Part shown: positions 42,001 through 45,000 of the stretch, one piece after another
How positions within the stretch are numbered: position 1 is the first letter of the stretch
How the letters are laid out: each line of letters begins with the position of its first letter
Assembly: GCA_965197745.1 (NCBI GenBank)
Contig: CBDANS010000007.1
Location: 576,001 to 640,000 of the forward strand
Source of the DNA: Opitutales bacterium
GTDB lineage: Bacteria > Verrucomicrobiota > Verrucomicrobiia > Opitutales > PNEW01
Length of the DNA stretch: 64,000 nt
Direction of reading: 5' to 3'
Position numbers: made by a program

Positions 42001-45000
42001 ATCGCCTTGATCTTTTTGTCGGACAACGACTGCTGCACTTGATGAGCAATGAATGGCTTCGCATGTCGTCGCTTCGCTCCTCGGAACACTGCCGTTGTCA
42101 CTACGGATATAGCTGGGAGCTCCCTCCTTTTCAATGGCCTCGCTAAGCACAGAGAGGACATCCGATGAGGTGAGTTCACGAGCGACCCGGATATCCAGAC
42201 ATTCACGCGTATATGTCTTCGCTTCGCTTGAGTGTCGTCGCTTTCAGCTCCTCGGTACATCGATCAGAGTCATCATCTTTAATGGACCGCCATGGTCTGT
42301 GCGATCATGGACAAAGTCCCAGGACCAAAGGTGATTGCGACCGGTTGCTTTAGTAGGCGACCCCGTAGAGACCCCTTGACGGTGTCTACGCTTTTTAGGT
42401 GGCTTTACCTGCAACCCTTCTGAACGTCGTACTGCCTGAACAAACTTCCTGTTTGTTGTCCAGCCTTCCTTTACGAGCAAGGCACGGATGCGCCGGTAAC
42501 CGTAGCAGGGATGTTCCCAGGACAGGGTTATAATCCGCTCGGCCAACCGCTGAGCTTTCTTACTGGCCTGCTTGGGCTGGTAGCTGAAAGTTGACCAACT
42601 GAGGCTGAGGTAGGAACAAGCCCTTCGCAACGAGCACAGCCCTCTCTCAGCCGCATCTTTTACTACTCGCTTCTTCTGCTTGGGGCTCACCACTTTTTTG
42701 ACAGCGTTTCCTCCATTACCTGATTCTTAAGCATTTGATCAGCGAGCATCTTCTTCAACTCGGTGTTTTCTTTTTCCAGCTCTTTAAATCGCTTCGCATC
42801 GGCTAGTTCCAAATTGCCATACTTTTTACCCCAGCGATAGAAGGTCTGTTCACTCACGTTGTTGCCTCGGCAGATTTCCTCTACCGTTTTTCCGGTATCG
42901 GCTTGCCGCAGTATTGCGATGATCTGTTCTGTTGTGTATCTTTTTCTTTTCATGAGGTTATCTGTTTATCCCGATAACCTCTCTCTGTTAATGATACCAT
43001 TTTTGGGGGTCACTCCACCGTTTATACAGGCATATTGTGACCAATGGAATACAAGCCGTGTATACGATGGTATACTTCTGATGATGCTGAAATGCGAAGG
43101 GGTACAGTAATTAATATCTGCCCATCACCCTTATTGCAAAAAATGTAGTATCTGCCTAAACCGATTAGATGAGACCGAGGGTAGGGAACATTGACACCCC
43201 CGCCCCTCTTGATGAACTTGATATTATAGGCACAATTTATCCTTTATATTGAATATCAGAATGTTTTTAATGCACCAGAAATGCACCAGTGAATTTATAA
43301 GTTTAATTATTGCTGTCTTAAGTATTTGAATATCAAGCTGAGGAGAGGTGGCAGAGTGGCTGACTACGAAGGTTAGAAACCTGAGACCCCATGTGCCTGG
43401 CTGCATCAGGCACAGTAGAAGTAAAATCGACTTTACATTATTCCATGAGTCGCAAATCGTCAGGCTGAGGAAAGGTGGCAGAGTGGCTGACTACGAAGGT
43501 TAGAAACCTGAGACCCCATGTGCCTGGCTGCATCAGGCACAGTAGAAGTAAAATCGACTTTGCATTATTCCATGAGTCGCAAATCGTCAGGCTGAGGAAA
43601 GGTGGCAGAGTGGCCGACTACGAAGGTTGAAAACCTGAGACCCCATGTGCCTGGCTGCATCAGGCACAATAGAAGTAAAATCGACTTTACATTAATCCAT
43701 GAGTCGCAAATCGTCAAGCTGAGGAGAGGTGGCAGAGTGGCCGAATGTGCCTGACTCGAAATCAGGTGGTGGAGCAATCCACCCGGGGGTTCGAATCCCT
43801 CCCTCTCCGCCAGTTCAATTGCGGATTGTCGATTGTCGATTGGATAAGATTTATCAATGGCGGATTTATTTTTGCTTCGAGTTGGCTCTGGCGGATTTGC
43901 GTGAGGTCACGACAATGGCGGTAATTTCGTTTGCTTCTTGTTTTACTTCTTGGAGGTAGTTGTAAGGAAGAATTCCCGATTCTTCGGTTAGCTCTAACCA
44001 GAATAGAGTTTCGTCAGCTTCTTCTTCAACAATACCAAGTTTTGCTATGAACTCCGTTTTGCTTCTTGCTCTACAAGCTGATCGATAATTCGAAGCTACA
44101 GATGTTCCACATCGTACGATTTGATTGCTTATAATTCTTGCGGTTGAAGTTTTGGGTAATGCTTCAACCATTTTCAGTATTTTCAAAGCAAAAATTTTAG
44201 TCCTATTCTTCATTATATCTGGATTCATATAATGTAAGAATTCGGATAAACTCTGTTTTTTATTAAGGCTTTAATCGAATTTCTCAATCAGCAATCGAAA
44301 ATCGAAAATCGAAAATCGAAAATTCCCCAAGATCCCTCCCTCTCCGCCAGTTCAATGTTAGATGTCGCCCACGCGGTAGCGGGGCTTGGTAGTCGATTTC
44401 GGATTTTCGATGAGGGATGTCGGGCTGTGCCCTCGGTAGTCGATTGGATAGAATAGCCACCAGCCGTCGTCCCGCGGTGGCGGGACTATGGCCGGCAAGC
44501 AAAAGGCACTACCAGAGCGCAGCGAGATCTTCCAAAGGCAGAAGAGATAATAATTTAGATAAGTATTTTTCAAGATAAGCTGTTTGGTAACCGACAGGAA
44601 CAATCGGCATTCGTACCGAGGGCGTTGCCCGACATCTTCCAAATCGACAATTGGCTCGTCCCTGAGATGCAAAATTAGGACCGTGACCAACCATCGCTTC
44701 TCTTCCCTGCGTGTGAAGGAAATTAGTCATTGAAATCCTGTCGCCGGTGCAGTTATAATGCTGATTAAATTTTAAAGCGAGGAAAGTTCAAATGCTTGAT
44801 TTCAAAGTGAGTCCGTTACCCGGTAATTTCGGAGCCGAGGTCACGAATATTGACGTCTCATCTGATAAATTTACGGATGTGACGTTTAAAGAATTATTAC
44901 AGGTATTATATGATAACCGGCTAGTGGTTATTCGTGATCAAATGCTATCCAAGGCGGAATATCTGGCATTTGGAAAGCGATTTGGAACGCCCATTCCCCA

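Follow-up and report, generated by a model that had tools for sequence, protein, structure and literature searches.

ORF-bearing intervening sequences (IVSs) of rRNA genes have been called selfish since the 1990s; to our knowledge, they have no relatives outside rRNA and no known mechanism. Tandem heptamer repeats are found in the intergenic DNA of several bacterial groups, including GGGGA(C/T)T repeats in Nostoc and the STRR of cyanobacteria, and we know of no origin for them. The PF05635-type protein family has thousands of unannotated members, recorded as "four helix bundle protein." Avd, the accessory protein of diversity-generating retroelements (DGRs), is said in the bAvd structure paper to be pentameric, basic, and nucleic acid binding.

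The closest known system to the locus described here is the ORF-bearing 23S rRNA IVS of Coxiella. According to the available part of the report on it (PMC4990558), this IVS is 428 nt long, carries an ORF of the PF05635 family (S23p), and has a 28-bp terminal stem that is cut by RNase III. At its 5' end, it contains two to three tandem GACAGAT heptamers, the number of which varies among strains; the same source regards the IVS as selfish, its means of movement as unknown, and its ORF as decaying in some strains. Other reports, likewise available in part, describe intergenic sets of TAACTGA heptamers in Beggiatoaceae (PMC4679880) and, in Xanthomonas, 70 to 75 pairs of GGGAATC repeats in convergent inverted orientation with no gene reported (PMC4692102). 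A term search of the available text of PMC4679880 and PMC4692102 found no mention of S23, 23S, four-helix bundle, or Avd. Beyond the Coxiella paper, literature searches conducted mostly outside the subscription journals found nothing that links the PF05635/TIGR02436 family to tandem repeats.

The feature analyzed here lies at positions 43795 to 44356 of a 64,000-nt stretch of DNA from an Opitutales bacterium (the window; positions 576,001 to 640,000 of contig CBDANS010000007.1, designated C7). It is probably one copy of a cassette of the IVS kind, located in intergenic DNA and operating by the mechanism proposed below.

Anatomy of the Cassette

The feature consists of a PF05635/TIGR02436 gene between two inverted heptamer arrays, with an exact 25-nt direct repeat outermost. 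The cassette measures about 0.5 kb, and its cargo is a single four-helix-bundle protein gene with a short leader. The features of the locus are listed below in window coordinates; G001 and G002 are two genomes of the same family.

43333..43741, plus strand: 127-bp tandem repeat, 3.2 copies (TRF), a neighbor of the cassette that lies outside it
43723..43812, plus strand: tRNA-Ser(CGA), intact (ARAGORN; Rfam RF00005, 55.6 bits)
43795..43819, plus strand: direct repeat copy 1, 25 nt, from the sixth T-loop base to 7 nt beyond CCA (read from the sequence)
43813..43843, plus strand: tRNA-side arm, GTTCAAT TGCGGAT TGTCGAT TGTCGAT TGG, a G-type arm on the plus strand (sequence)
43866..44228, minus strand: four-helix-bundle protein gene, 120 aa, PF05635/TIGR02436 (ORF call, profile matches)
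44229..44292, minus strand: leader, from the far arm to the start codon, conserved with the G001 ortholog (blastn, query 2496-2916 against locus L053, 82% identity)
44293..44323, plus strand: far arm, 4.4 copies of AATCGAA, inverted relative to the tRNA-side arm (TRF, 100% matches)
44332..44356, plus strand: direct repeat copy 2, 25 nt, duplicating the tRNA 3' end and the adjoining GTTCAAT, absent beyond the orthologous tRNA in G001 and G002
44390..44654, no strand assigned: "empty" element without an ORF, the ancestral neighbor of the tRNA, also beside the tRNA in G001 and G002
48700..48765, no strand assigned: second empty inverted heptamer pair, GTGTTAA/GTTTTAG type, G-type arm first, 6-nt spacer (TRF)

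The left part of the first direct repeat copy is the final 18 nt of tRNA-Ser(CGA). The 25-nt repeat, ATCCCTCCCTCTCCGCCAGTTCAAT, occupies positions 43795-43819 and 44332-44356, and C7:620333 (window position 44333) holds a second exact occurrence of its 17-nt tRNA part. In the tRNA-side arm, TRF detects 2.7 copies of GATTGTC (43824-43842, 100% matches); the reverse complement of this unit agrees with the AATCGAA unit of the far arm at 6 of 7 positions. The gene runs opposite to both the tRNA and the TauD gene that lies downstream. The genome-wide survey's note had placed a cassette (C7:619820-620331) in the T-loop of tRNA-Ser(CGA), bracketed by a 25-nt repeat, and this is borne out by ARAGORN, TRF, the sequence itself, and relatives without the insert.

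The adjacent empty element comprises a G-type heptamer arm (44390-44413), an interior of approximately 170 nt, and a C-type arm (about 44637-44654), with an inner inverted repeat, GGGATGTCGGGC..., at 44414-44438 and 44614-44636. The same empty element is also found after the tRNA-Ser at C7:491636-491725, bracketed by a tRNA 3'-end repeat. The first ~22 nt of the tRNA are copied at the start of every unit of the 127-bp tandem repeat; this repeat occurs at a single site in the genome, and G002 has one copy of the non-tRNA part of the unit upstream of its tRNA. In a search of positions 43200 to 44800 against Rfam, the tRNA was the sole match above the threshold.

Contigs assembled from four sequencing runs (three studies) show the locus arranged as in the window, and one of 747 nt covers 43788-44488 with no differences. 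Joints at the repeats in those contigs were considered as excision or deletion forms, but they are short-sided (22 to 34 nt) and were not trusted.

The Cassette Protein

The window protein matches PF05635 with an E value of 1.2e-16 (61.3 bits; cut-off, 33.8) and TIGR02436 with 85.9 bits (cut-off, 24). Residues 2 to 114 align with PDB entry 2rld_A (E value, 4.3e-15), a relative with a solved four-helix-bundle structure. The 2rld entry contains five chains, and a PF05635 homolog is stated to be pentameric in the available part of PMC4990558. Compared with its G001 ortholog, the window protein has a dN/dS of 0.10; in five ortholog pairs, dN/dS is 0.09 to 0.18 at a dS of 0.6 to 1.6, and the unit type is kept in all five. 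By these ratios, the cassette proteins are under purifying selection. None of six cassette proteins matched a defense system in PADLOC, and a defense function was rejected on that ground.

Heptamer Arrays and Their Association with PF05635 Genes

Arrays of at least three copies, as detected genome-wide by TRF, number 205 with period 7, 104 with period 6, 66 with period 8, and 29 with period 9. Only 21 of the period-7 arrays have at least three exact copies, so most arrays are imperfect. Tandem 7-nt units are concentrated in noncoding DNA: self-match runs of at least 10 nt in non-ORF DNA number 52 at lag 7, 33 at lag 14, 19 at lag 8, and 1 to 9 at most other lags, as opposed to 16 at lag 7 in ORF DNA, which confirms the lag-7 peak reported earlier. 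Relative to a crude longest-ORF set, which served as the control, 315 of the 416 period-7/8 arrays are intergenic. The arrays in convergent gaps number 88 per 547 gaps, those in tandem gaps 173 per 1975, and those in divergent gaps 53 per 609; the array census and the enrichment in convergent gaps given in the survey's note differ in detail with the detectors used and agree in substance.

The unit types, whose number roughly equals that of the paralogs, are dispersed genome-wide with 10 to 21 arrays each. Neighboring arrays share a unit type in 19 of 219 cases compared with 11.0 in shuffles (maximum, 20), indicating weak clustering. When the arms are read inward, the unit contains a stop codon in 39/66 upstream arms and 28/51 downstream arms; the corresponding counts are 27 and 19 for outward reading and 30.5 and 23.2 for letter-shuffled units. 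The excess in inward-reading arms is mild and results largely from C-poor composition.

This genome has 12 PF05635 loci, 10 intact and 2 broken. By eye, eight are flanked by inverted arrays of the same unit, one probably so, one by arrays of differing units, and two by none; an earlier reading of the flanks (6 of 11 genes) differs in detail only. The two flanks align in inverted orientation with a score of 16 or more at 6/12 PF05635 loci, 6/997 other ORFs of 80 to 170 aa, and 53/3923 ORFs overall, which places the array-gene association 40 to 80 times above background in this genome. The central claim of the survey's note, that the arrays are the inverted ends of PF05635 cassettes, withstood all the tests applied here.

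The arrangement recurs elsewhere. Most of 27 loci from related genomes lie between inverted same-unit arrays, with a patchy distribution (PF05635 cassettes in 16 of 31 relatives). At 74 loci from about a dozen phyla, the median flank score is 17 for inverted, 10 for direct, and 9 for permuted pairs, and the inverted score reaches at least 15 in 49; arrays are absent at 16 of these 74 loci, as they are at 2 of the 12 own loci. The period is 7 in 81 of the 96 arrays called at the multiphylum loci. Both arms could be called in 53 of 104 loci, with units equal in inverted orientation in 39 and in direct orientation in 3; the median number of units per arm is 4.4 (interquartile range, 3.6 to 5.1). 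The 80 distant loci were selected for their similarity to a single protein subfamily (alignment A2, the closer protein set) and represent that subfamily. In viral contigs, 27 of 37 loci have an inverted flank score of at least 15. The recurrence of PF05635 cassettes with inverted array ends in relatives, many phyla, and viral contigs agrees with the polarity, the remnant, and the cassette-bounded homology described below.

Polarity, Inheritance, and Dynamics

On either strand, the first arm is the G-rich, C-poor one. This fixed polarity separates the cargo from neighboring genes. In 49 foreign loci, the upstream arm has more G than C in 38 and more C than G in 7. Among the same-unit inverted pairs of this genome, 14 are G>C (11 empty, 3 with PF05635), 2 are C>G, both enclosing ordinary genes, and 4 have an ambiguous skew (the window pair with its PF05635 gene, 1 short empty pair, and 2 pairs around ordinary genes).

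The heptamer unit is inherited together with the protein lineage, as seen from the share of protein pairs with the same unit: 7/10 at an identity of at least 70%, 9/27 at 60 to 70%, 43/290 at 50 to 60%, and 2.9% below 50%. At 60% identity or more, 16 same-unit pairs are observed, compared with a mean of 1.6 and a maximum of 6 for shuffled units; these counts span related sequences and hence are not independent.

Comparison with the relatives shows cassettes that have been inverted in place, have lost their interior to leave empty array pairs, or have been exchanged. The cassette at C6:20072 is inverted in place relative to G001. At the site corresponding to C7:805162, G001 has an ORF-deleted remnant, so one empty pair, at the least, originated as a cassette, and G002 has the cassette at a different site. 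Orthologous flanks may also hold different cassettes, and G001 itself contains a pair of 614-bp cassettes with 94.6% identity and unrelated flanks. Homology between cassette copies stops at the outer edge of the arrays, and by this measure the cassette is a discrete unit. Its movement is read from genome comparisons, and part of the variation among relatives may reflect loss, not gain. The cassette contains no recombinase or transposase, and a nonsystematic search showed no target duplication outside the tRNA-linked lineage.

Of 68 loci, 41 have both neighboring genes codirectional with the cassette gene, and 4 have both opposite to it. The window gene, which reads against the tRNA and TauD, departs from this co-oriented majority. 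Cassettes are found in the spacers atpG|atpD, cysD|cysN-type (four genomes), pheS|pheT (two genomes), gyrB|gyrA (two genomes), and groES|groEL, and the same operon spacers are occupied in different families by cassettes with proteins of different subfamilies.

The arrays could instead be operators or binding sites of nucleic acid-binding proteins that serve the host, with nothing mobile involved: each PF05635 paralog would bind its own array at 10 to 20 places in the genome, regulating or organizing the neighboring genes, and its own gene would be autoregulated by two such arrays. This explanation, which we consider unlikely, would suit the dispersal of the unit types genome-wide in 10 to 21 arrays each, their near equality in number to the paralogs, the strong purifying selection on the protein, the lack of a recombinase, the approximately 4.4 units per arm (a fit to a pentameric protein), and the conservation of the unit with the protein lineage beyond neutral expectation. 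It leaves unexplained the cassette-bounded homology in unrelated flanks, the swapping at orthologous sites, and the inversion in place, as well as the ORF decay (2 of 12 loci broken, plus the deletion remnant). Cassettes in viral contigs, their patchy distribution (16/31 relatives), the direct-repeat insertion at the window tRNA, and the use of the same operon spacers in different families for proteins of different subfamilies also speak for a mobile cassette.

Empty Array Pairs and a Second Cargo

Empty pairs of one unit type have their arms in common but not their spacers and are therefore not recent copies of one element; an amplified MITE family was rejected because the spacers are unrelated. 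A second cargo is provided by PDDEXK_3 genes, which occupy similar repeat-bracketed cassettes, one of them at the very site where this genome carries a PF05635 cassette. The repeats of the PDDEXK_3 cassettes have periods of 8 to 9, not the 7 of PF05635, so that the repeat type goes with the cargo.

The excess of arrays over genes (416 versus 12) and the empty pairs with common arms and differing spacers are also what might be seen if the arrays were targets rather than ends, i.e., an independent host repeat (hairpin forming and REP-like, or prone to slippage) in whose loops genes insert or survive. The array after the tRNA in this genome resembles the gene-less array in G001 and G002, PDDEXK_3 genes occupy comparable positions, and inverted heptamer pairs of Xanthomonas come with no gene reported in the available text (PMC4692102). 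Such a repeat is nevertheless an improbable explanation. Across genomes and phyla, the unit is inherited with the protein lineage, which is unexpected for a mere landing site; the ORF-deleted remnant is an empty pair derived from a cassette, the homology of copies ends at the outer array edge, and the PDDEXK_3 repeats differ in period from those of PF05635.

The tRNA-Ser Site

In G001 and G002, the tRNA is directly followed by the empty element, with a single tRNA 3' end and no cassette, and the orthologous tRNA has neither the cassette nor a second repeat copy in three genomes of other families. In these comparisons, the cassette at tRNA-Ser(CGA) is present only in the lineage of this genome. 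The tRNA 3' end is directly repeated at the locus and relatives have an empty site, as in integrative elements that target tRNA genes. No integrase is found inside the window element; between the repeat copies, no ORF apart from the PF05635 gene has a family match.

At C7:491929, 620333, 1499900, and 1520107, a C-type arm and a G-type arm enclose a copy of the 3' 17-mer of tRNA-Ser. The G001 ortholog of the window gene is found at another locus, behind a degenerate tRNA 3' fragment and near the end of an integrase-bearing island. Modules of one array type that share the tRNA-Ser 3' segment suggest a tRNA-Ser-targeting integrase acting in trans; integrase genes adjoin tRNA-Ser in two of the loci compared (L047 and L048). 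No tRNA is found beside any of the 108 foreign loci, in accord with an earlier remark that tRNA targeting is not general. From these sequences, the tRNA association is confined to one cassette lineage, which carries copies of the 3' end of tRNA-Ser along with it.

Another reading applies to the window copy alone: the 25-nt repeat might mark an integrase-borne tRNA-Ser island that has since been stripped, the cassette being a chance survivor. Integrase-bearing islands do occupy tRNA-Ser genes of this order, a further tRNA 3'-end copy lies 4 kb from a tRNA-Ser (C7:1460569), and the layout of the repeat, from the T-loop to the 3' end, is the usual one for integrase att sites. However, four or more modules with the same type of array, including an empty one at the second tRNA-Ser, are bracketed by tRNA 3'-end copies exactly at the outer edges of their arms, and the G001 ortholog likewise lies behind a tRNA 3' fragment. 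Repeated reduction to exactly the arm-to-arm segment is unlikely, and a stripped island is given very little weight.

That the gene encodes the Avd accessory protein of a DGR is almost certainly wrong: Avd belongs to the same Pfam family and two of six paralogs or relatives weakly match the Avd model (23.2 and 30.7 bits), but the genome (92% complete) has no RVT_1 match anywhere, the Avd equivalog model NF033474 does not match the window protein and gives the others at most 30.7 bits against a cut-off of 80, and the flanks are arrays without template or variable repeats. The description "Avd-like" in the survey's note therefore holds for the PF05635 fold family and does not extend to Avd itself.

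Predicted Folding and Proposed Mechanism

In the predicted folds, the arms of the window cassette pair as a closing stem around the ORF, as the terminal inverted repeats of a 23S rRNA IVS do, in both the minimum free energy and the centroid structures of both strands (z scores, -3.7 and -2.2). A gene for RNase III is present in the genome. The sense duplex is the more stable one in 26 loci and the antisense duplex in 23; arm mismatches include 166 transversions and, among the transitions, 63 sense-wobble and 73 antisense-wobble changes. Neither duplex energies nor mismatch types give a signal of RNA-specific compensatory change in the arms, which look like DNA repeats kept alike by recombination.

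In the mechanism proposed for the mobile cassette, the window copy would have arrived by recombination at an att-like segment of tRNA-Ser, from the T-loop to the 3' end, with the integrase supplied in trans. Recombination between the arms would keep both alike and flip the interior. In transcripts, the arms may pair into a long stem, and by analogy with the rRNA IVS, RNase III might cut this stem and thereby release the cassette RNA from the host transcript. The protein, whose solved relatives are pentameric, would recognize its own heptamer array.

A broader generalization is offered only tentatively. The TIGR02436 pentamers might read heptamers sequence specifically, one unit per subunit, and form with the inverted arrays a self-propagating cassette system, with the PDDEXK_3 cassettes as a sister type. 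Such a system could have seeded the rRNA IVSs and most bacterial and some archaeal intergenic heptamer arrays, the gene-less pairs being fossils or derivatives mobilized in trans. If so, ORF-bearing rRNA IVSs and intergenic heptamer repeats would be two faces of one widespread cassette type, and the compact protein family would have value as a tool, provided that a programmable 7-nt specificity is real. For annotation, the cassettes call for caution, as they lie inside essential operons (atp, cysDN-type, pheST, gyrBA, and groESL) and can flip or decay; they probably affect the expression of their neighbors.

Comparison with Known Systems

The cassettes share inverted ends, and gene-less derivatives that outnumber the gene-bearing copies, with MITEs, transposons with subterminal sites, and integron cassettes. 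A promoter-less small ORF co-oriented with host transcription is a further likeness to integron gene cassettes and the MITE group. Unlike all of these, they lack a transposase and an integrase, show no target duplication in the nonsystematic search, and have not been amplified into identical copies; their ends are tandem heptamers specific to the cassette lineage. With tRNA-targeting integrative elements and their nonautonomous, CIME-like derivatives, the window copy shares the tRNA 3'-end repeat starting in the T-loop, the empty site, and tandem accretion; it differs in that the insert is only about 0.5 kb long, lacks an integrase, and represents one cassette lineage only. The likeness to the Avd of DGRs is limited to the PF05635 fold family, as a reverse transcriptase and template or variable repeats are both lacking and the scores stay below the equivalog cut-off.

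Similar to the TAACTGA, GGGAATC, and GGGGA(C/T)T repeats, the arrays are tandem 7-nt units that are mostly intergenic and number tens to hundreds of sets per genome. The repeats of Beggiatoaceae, Xanthomonas, and Nostoc have one dominant unit type per genome, whereas this genome has about 16 types, each tied to a paralog.

The IVSs of Coxiella and Leptospira share with the cassettes a small size, a single PF05635-family ORF, and terminal inverted repeats that form a stem; the Coxiella IVS also has the tandem heptamers, in its 5' terminal region. The IVS occupies helix 45 of 23S rRNA, whereas the cassettes are found in operon spacers, convergent gaps, and at a tRNA 3' end. Specifically, the window copy adjoins a tRNA, and no examined cassette lies in rRNA; the flanks of the 108 foreign loci have no match to the 23S rRNA of this genome except for one of 42 nt (L033). 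The 23S gene of this genome matches the whole model over 2,936 bases and hence appears to have no large insert. RNase III cutting has been demonstrated for the IVS and would apply to the cassettes by analogy. Compared with the IVS, the cassettes have longer arrays that serve as arms, and they are present in 12 copies in this genome, each with its own unit.

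Structure of the window cassette

The feature at 43795-44356 consists of a gene of the four-helix-bundle family PF05635/TIGR02436 (the 23S rRNA IVS, or intervening sequence, protein family) placed between inverted heptamer arrays, or arms. The genome-wide survey's note gives its coordinates and description correctly: arms, ORF and 25-nt repeat were all found again in the window.

43723-43812, plus strand: tRNA-Ser(CGA), intact (ARAGORN; Rfam tRNA)
43795-43819 and 44332-44356: exact 25-nt direct repeat, two copies bracketing arms and ORF (sequence read directly)
43813-43843 (TRF call, 43824-43842): near arm, GTTCAAT TGCGGAT TGTCGAT TGTCGAT, directly 3' of the tRNA
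43866-44228, minus strand: PF05635 ORF, 120 aa
Between ORF and far arm: leader, 64 nt
44293-44323 (TRF): far arm, AATCGAA, 4.4 copies

The 25-nt repeat spans the tRNA 3' end, from T-loop base 6 to 7 nt beyond the CCA. The far-arm unit is the inverse of the near-arm unit at 6 of 7 positions, and on both strands the predicted fold closes with the arms as its stem. The ORF matches PF05635 with an E value of 1.2e-16 and TIGR02436 with 85.9 bits (cut-off, 24), and resembles 2rld, a solved structure of an uncharacterised protein with five chains (E value, 4.3e-15).

Immediately 5' of the tRNA, and extending into it, is a 127-bp tandem repeat (3.2 copies, 43333-43741). Each unit opens with a copy of the tRNA-Ser 5' end (~22 nt), and the remainder is the tRNA's native upstream region, single in the same-family genome G002; the repeat is found nowhere else in the genome that holds the window (G000). 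Remnants of an IS3-type insertion sequence (41697-42953, minus strand) comprise three pieces, HTH_Tnp_1, HTH_21 and rve_3. Other window arrays include an empty (ORF-less) inverted pair, G-rich arm first, of GTGTTAA/GTTTTAG units with a 6-nt spacer and a CCTTCGA array alongside (48700-48816), and a ATACAGGATGCAGG array at 51220-51252.

The tRNA-Ser site in related genomes

In G001 and G002, both of the same family, the orthologous tRNA has a single 3' end, directly followed by a G-type (G-rich, C-poor) array, an interior of ~190 nt and a C-type (C-rich) array; a PF05635 gene is absent there in both. The same empty element is found in G000 at 44390-44654, behind the second repeat copy. The ~545 extra bases in G000 are therefore accounted for by the cassette and a single copy of the repeat. 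The orthologous tRNA also has no cassette in three genomes from other families. Inside the empty element, a dispersed repeat of 40-95 nt (44452-44545; at least 35 genomic copies) explains why metagenome-contig depth rises about tenfold at 44406-44553.

The G001 ortholog of the window protein (84% protein identity; dN/dS, 0.10) is encoded at a different locus, again behind a degenerate tRNA-Ser 3' fragment and with further such modules alongside. It adjoins the end of a ~19-kb island, whose integrase-like ORF was recognised by eye. Four sites in G000 have an exact or near-exact copy of the tRNA-Ser 3' 17-mer precisely between a C-type arm and a G-type arm; one of these copies brackets an empty element at another tRNA-Ser. 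Thus, an att-like copy of the tRNA end accompanies the window array lineage. This association is not general, as a tRNA is absent from all 108 foreign PF05635 loci.

Heptamer arrays and arm polarity in G000

The abundance of period-7 arrays claimed in the survey's note is borne out: TRF arrays of at least 3 copies number 205 for period 7, compared with 104, 66 and 29 for periods 6, 8 and 9. Just 21 period-7 arrays have at least 3 exact copies, so most are imperfect. The reported peaks at lags 7, 14 and 8 also reappear (52, 33 and 19 self-match runs in non-ORF DNA), with 16 lag-7 runs in ORF DNA, although the latter is five times larger. By a crude ORF set, 315 of 416 period-7/8 arrays are intergenic, and their density in convergent gaps, which the note described as enriched, is ~1.8 times that of other gaps. 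Unit types are scattered genome-wide, with 10 to 21 arrays each.

Three direct arrays (TTAATTC/TAATTCC units; C6:998349-998706) are probably located in the rRNA operon spacer, since they adjoin a 23S rRNA gene (C6:995268-998203, minus strand). A single intergenic gap of G002 (C1:1168220-1168640) contains nested arrays of four unit types, with GTCAAAAG outermost, then GTGAACA, then eight copies of CCCTGAA plus a GGGATGTCGGGC-type motif. Judging from this nesting, heptamer elements seem to insert into each other.

G000 has 12 PF05635 loci, two of them broken. The claim that these genes sit between inverted arrays of the same unit holds by eye for 8; of the remaining 4, one has probable inverted arrays, one has different units on each side and two, which form a distinct subfamily, have no arrays. 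These two (C6:753553-753990 and C7:2054168-2054485) carry ATCGNN hexamers immediately 5' of the start codon and are located in a repeated segment that recurs several times in G001 and G002. The inverted flank score (alignment score between the two flanks of a locus) reaches at least 16 at 6 of the 12 loci, compared with 6 of 997 other ORFs of 80 to 170 aa and 53 of 3,923 ORFs overall.

A census of inverted pairs with units at most 1 mismatch apart and within 1.5 kb yielded 20 pairs. The G-rich arm comes first in 14, of which 11 are empty (spacers of 8 to 112 nt) and 3, with spacers of 442 to 540 nt, each contain a PF05635 gene. Both C-first pairs enclose ordinary genes (ATP synthase gamma; a dioxygenase-like ORF). 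Skew is ambiguous in the remaining four: two enclose ordinary genes, one is short and empty, and one is the window pair with its PF05635 gene. By this sorting, PF05635 genes lie inside elements and ordinary genes lie between elements. Single arrays beside a stop codon are mostly G-type on the strand of that gene (121, versus 39 C-type), whereas those beside a start codon are mostly C-type (59 versus 28 G-type). Because this skew matches what G-first pairs give, most arrays probably are, or once were, parts of such pairs.

Cassette turnover

The cassette at C6:20072 is flipped in place in G001, with conserved flanks and unchanged arm polarity. At the site of C7:805162, G001 retains the arrays, 45 nt from the 3' end of the ORF and a portion of the leader; this remnant is a cassette that has lost its ORF. 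In G002, this site has other nested arrays, and the cassette itself is found 19 kb away (82% identity). G001 and G002 each carry ~50 near-identical copies of a ~35-nt dispersed repeat of a separate family (L002:497-536; G000 C7:804221-804260). A 614-bp cassette is present twice in G001 (94.6% identity) with unrelated flanks, and one of these sites is occupied by a different cassette in G002. The atpG|atpD cassette is syntenic in all three genomes.

A second gene family is found in the same setting. At the site of the G000 cassette C6:1267204, G002 has a 143-aa PDDEXK_3 (PF13366) gene flanked by inverted CACGAAT-type repeats; a truncated remnant of that gene is present in G001. Such small genes are found in G002 (L164/L238; C2:519167-519505), in G000 (C6:924742-925005) and at 27 loci from relatives (L213-L241), of which 14 have an inverted flank score of at least 15, versus 6 in direct orientation. 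Their arrays have periods of 8-9, rather than 7. Of 31 relatives, 17 have the family, and 14 of these also have PF05635 (genome lists compared). PDDEXK_3 is a second cargo of repeat-bracketed cassettes.

Phyletic distribution

Within the order, 16 of 31 genomes, including G000, have PF05635, and nearly all 27 loci from same-order genomes have inverted 7- to 8-mer arrays whose unit is particular to the locus. A scan with the alignment of one subfamily (A2), covering a single genome per species, retrieved 80 loci from Verrucomicrobiota, Planctomycetota, Acidobacteriota, Bacteroidota, Chloroflexota, Patescibacteria, Gemmatimonadota, Bacillota and Proteobacteria, as well as one archaeon. For the 74 with usable flanks, the median inverted flank score is 17, versus 10 when the flanks are compared in direct orientation and 9 when flanks of different loci are paired; 49 score at least 15. 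TRF calls arrays on both sides at 38, one side at 20 and neither side at 16 of these loci, and 81 of the 96 arrays have period 7. Among 104 loci, arms contain a median of 4.4 units (interquartile range, 3.6-5.1), and both arms are called in 53, with inverted-equal units in 39 and direct-equal units in 3. In the upstream arm, G exceeds C at 38 of 49 loci, and C exceeds G at 7. Among 37 loci on viral contigs (L174-L210), 27 reach a score of 15 and have the same kind of cassette with inverted heptamer arrays; phages or prophages may carry cassettes between hosts.

By a crude test, neighbour genes are co-directional with the cassette on both sides at 41 of 68 loci and opposite on both sides at 4; the window cassette is an exception to the usual co-orientation. 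Pfam assignments place cassettes between the genes for ATP synthase gamma and beta in G000, for CysD-type and CysN-type proteins in four genomes of as many families, for PheS and PheT and for GyrB and GyrA in two genomes each, and for GroES and GroEL in one genome. The CysD|CysN-type junction has proteins from at least 2 subfamilies, with differing units.

Probable coupling of protein and unit

Five ortholog pairs show dN/dS of 0.09-0.18 at dS of 0.6-1.6, and the unit type is kept in all five despite near-saturated synonymous sites. For 81 loci with a called unit, the fractions of same-unit pairs by falling protein identity are 7/10, 9/27, 43/290, 37/1,292 and 47/1,621. At 60% identity or more, 16 such pairs are observed, compared with a mean of 1.6 and a maximum of 6 for shuffled units. 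These patterns are a strong hint that protein and unit are functionally coupled, rather than proof, because related sequences are non-independent.

Mechanism and comparison with known systems

The proposed steps are ranked here from best to least supported. That the cassette is a discrete unit with the arrays as its ends is well supported. The comparisons with relatives show its turnover via recombination, deletion and exchange; the in-place inversion indicates that the arms recombine. The window copy likely arrived through att-type recombination at the tRNA end. Finally, putative RNase III processing and putative recognition of the arrays by the protein are plausible. An RNase III gene is present in G000. 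Duplex energies and arm mismatch types give no sign of RNA-level compensation in the arms, which behave as DNA repeats.

Identity with Avd, the accessory protein of diversity-generating retroelements, is ruled out: G000 has no reverse transcriptase match, and the protein falls short of the equivalog model. Heptamer arrays and rRNA IVSs are each already in print. A literature search found no paper tying the PF05635 family to inverted heptamer arrays outside rRNA, and term searches of the papers on TAACTGA (PMC4679880) and GGGAATC (PMC4692102) repeats gave no mention of the protein family. The nearest documented counterpart of the cassettes is the Coxiella 23S IVS. This IVS is 428 nt long and contains an S23p ORF of the PF05635 family; RNase III cuts its terminal stem of 28 bp, and at its 5' end are 2-3 tandem GACAGAT heptamers whose number varies by strain. 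A transposon-like or mobile origin is considered by the authors (PMC4990558).
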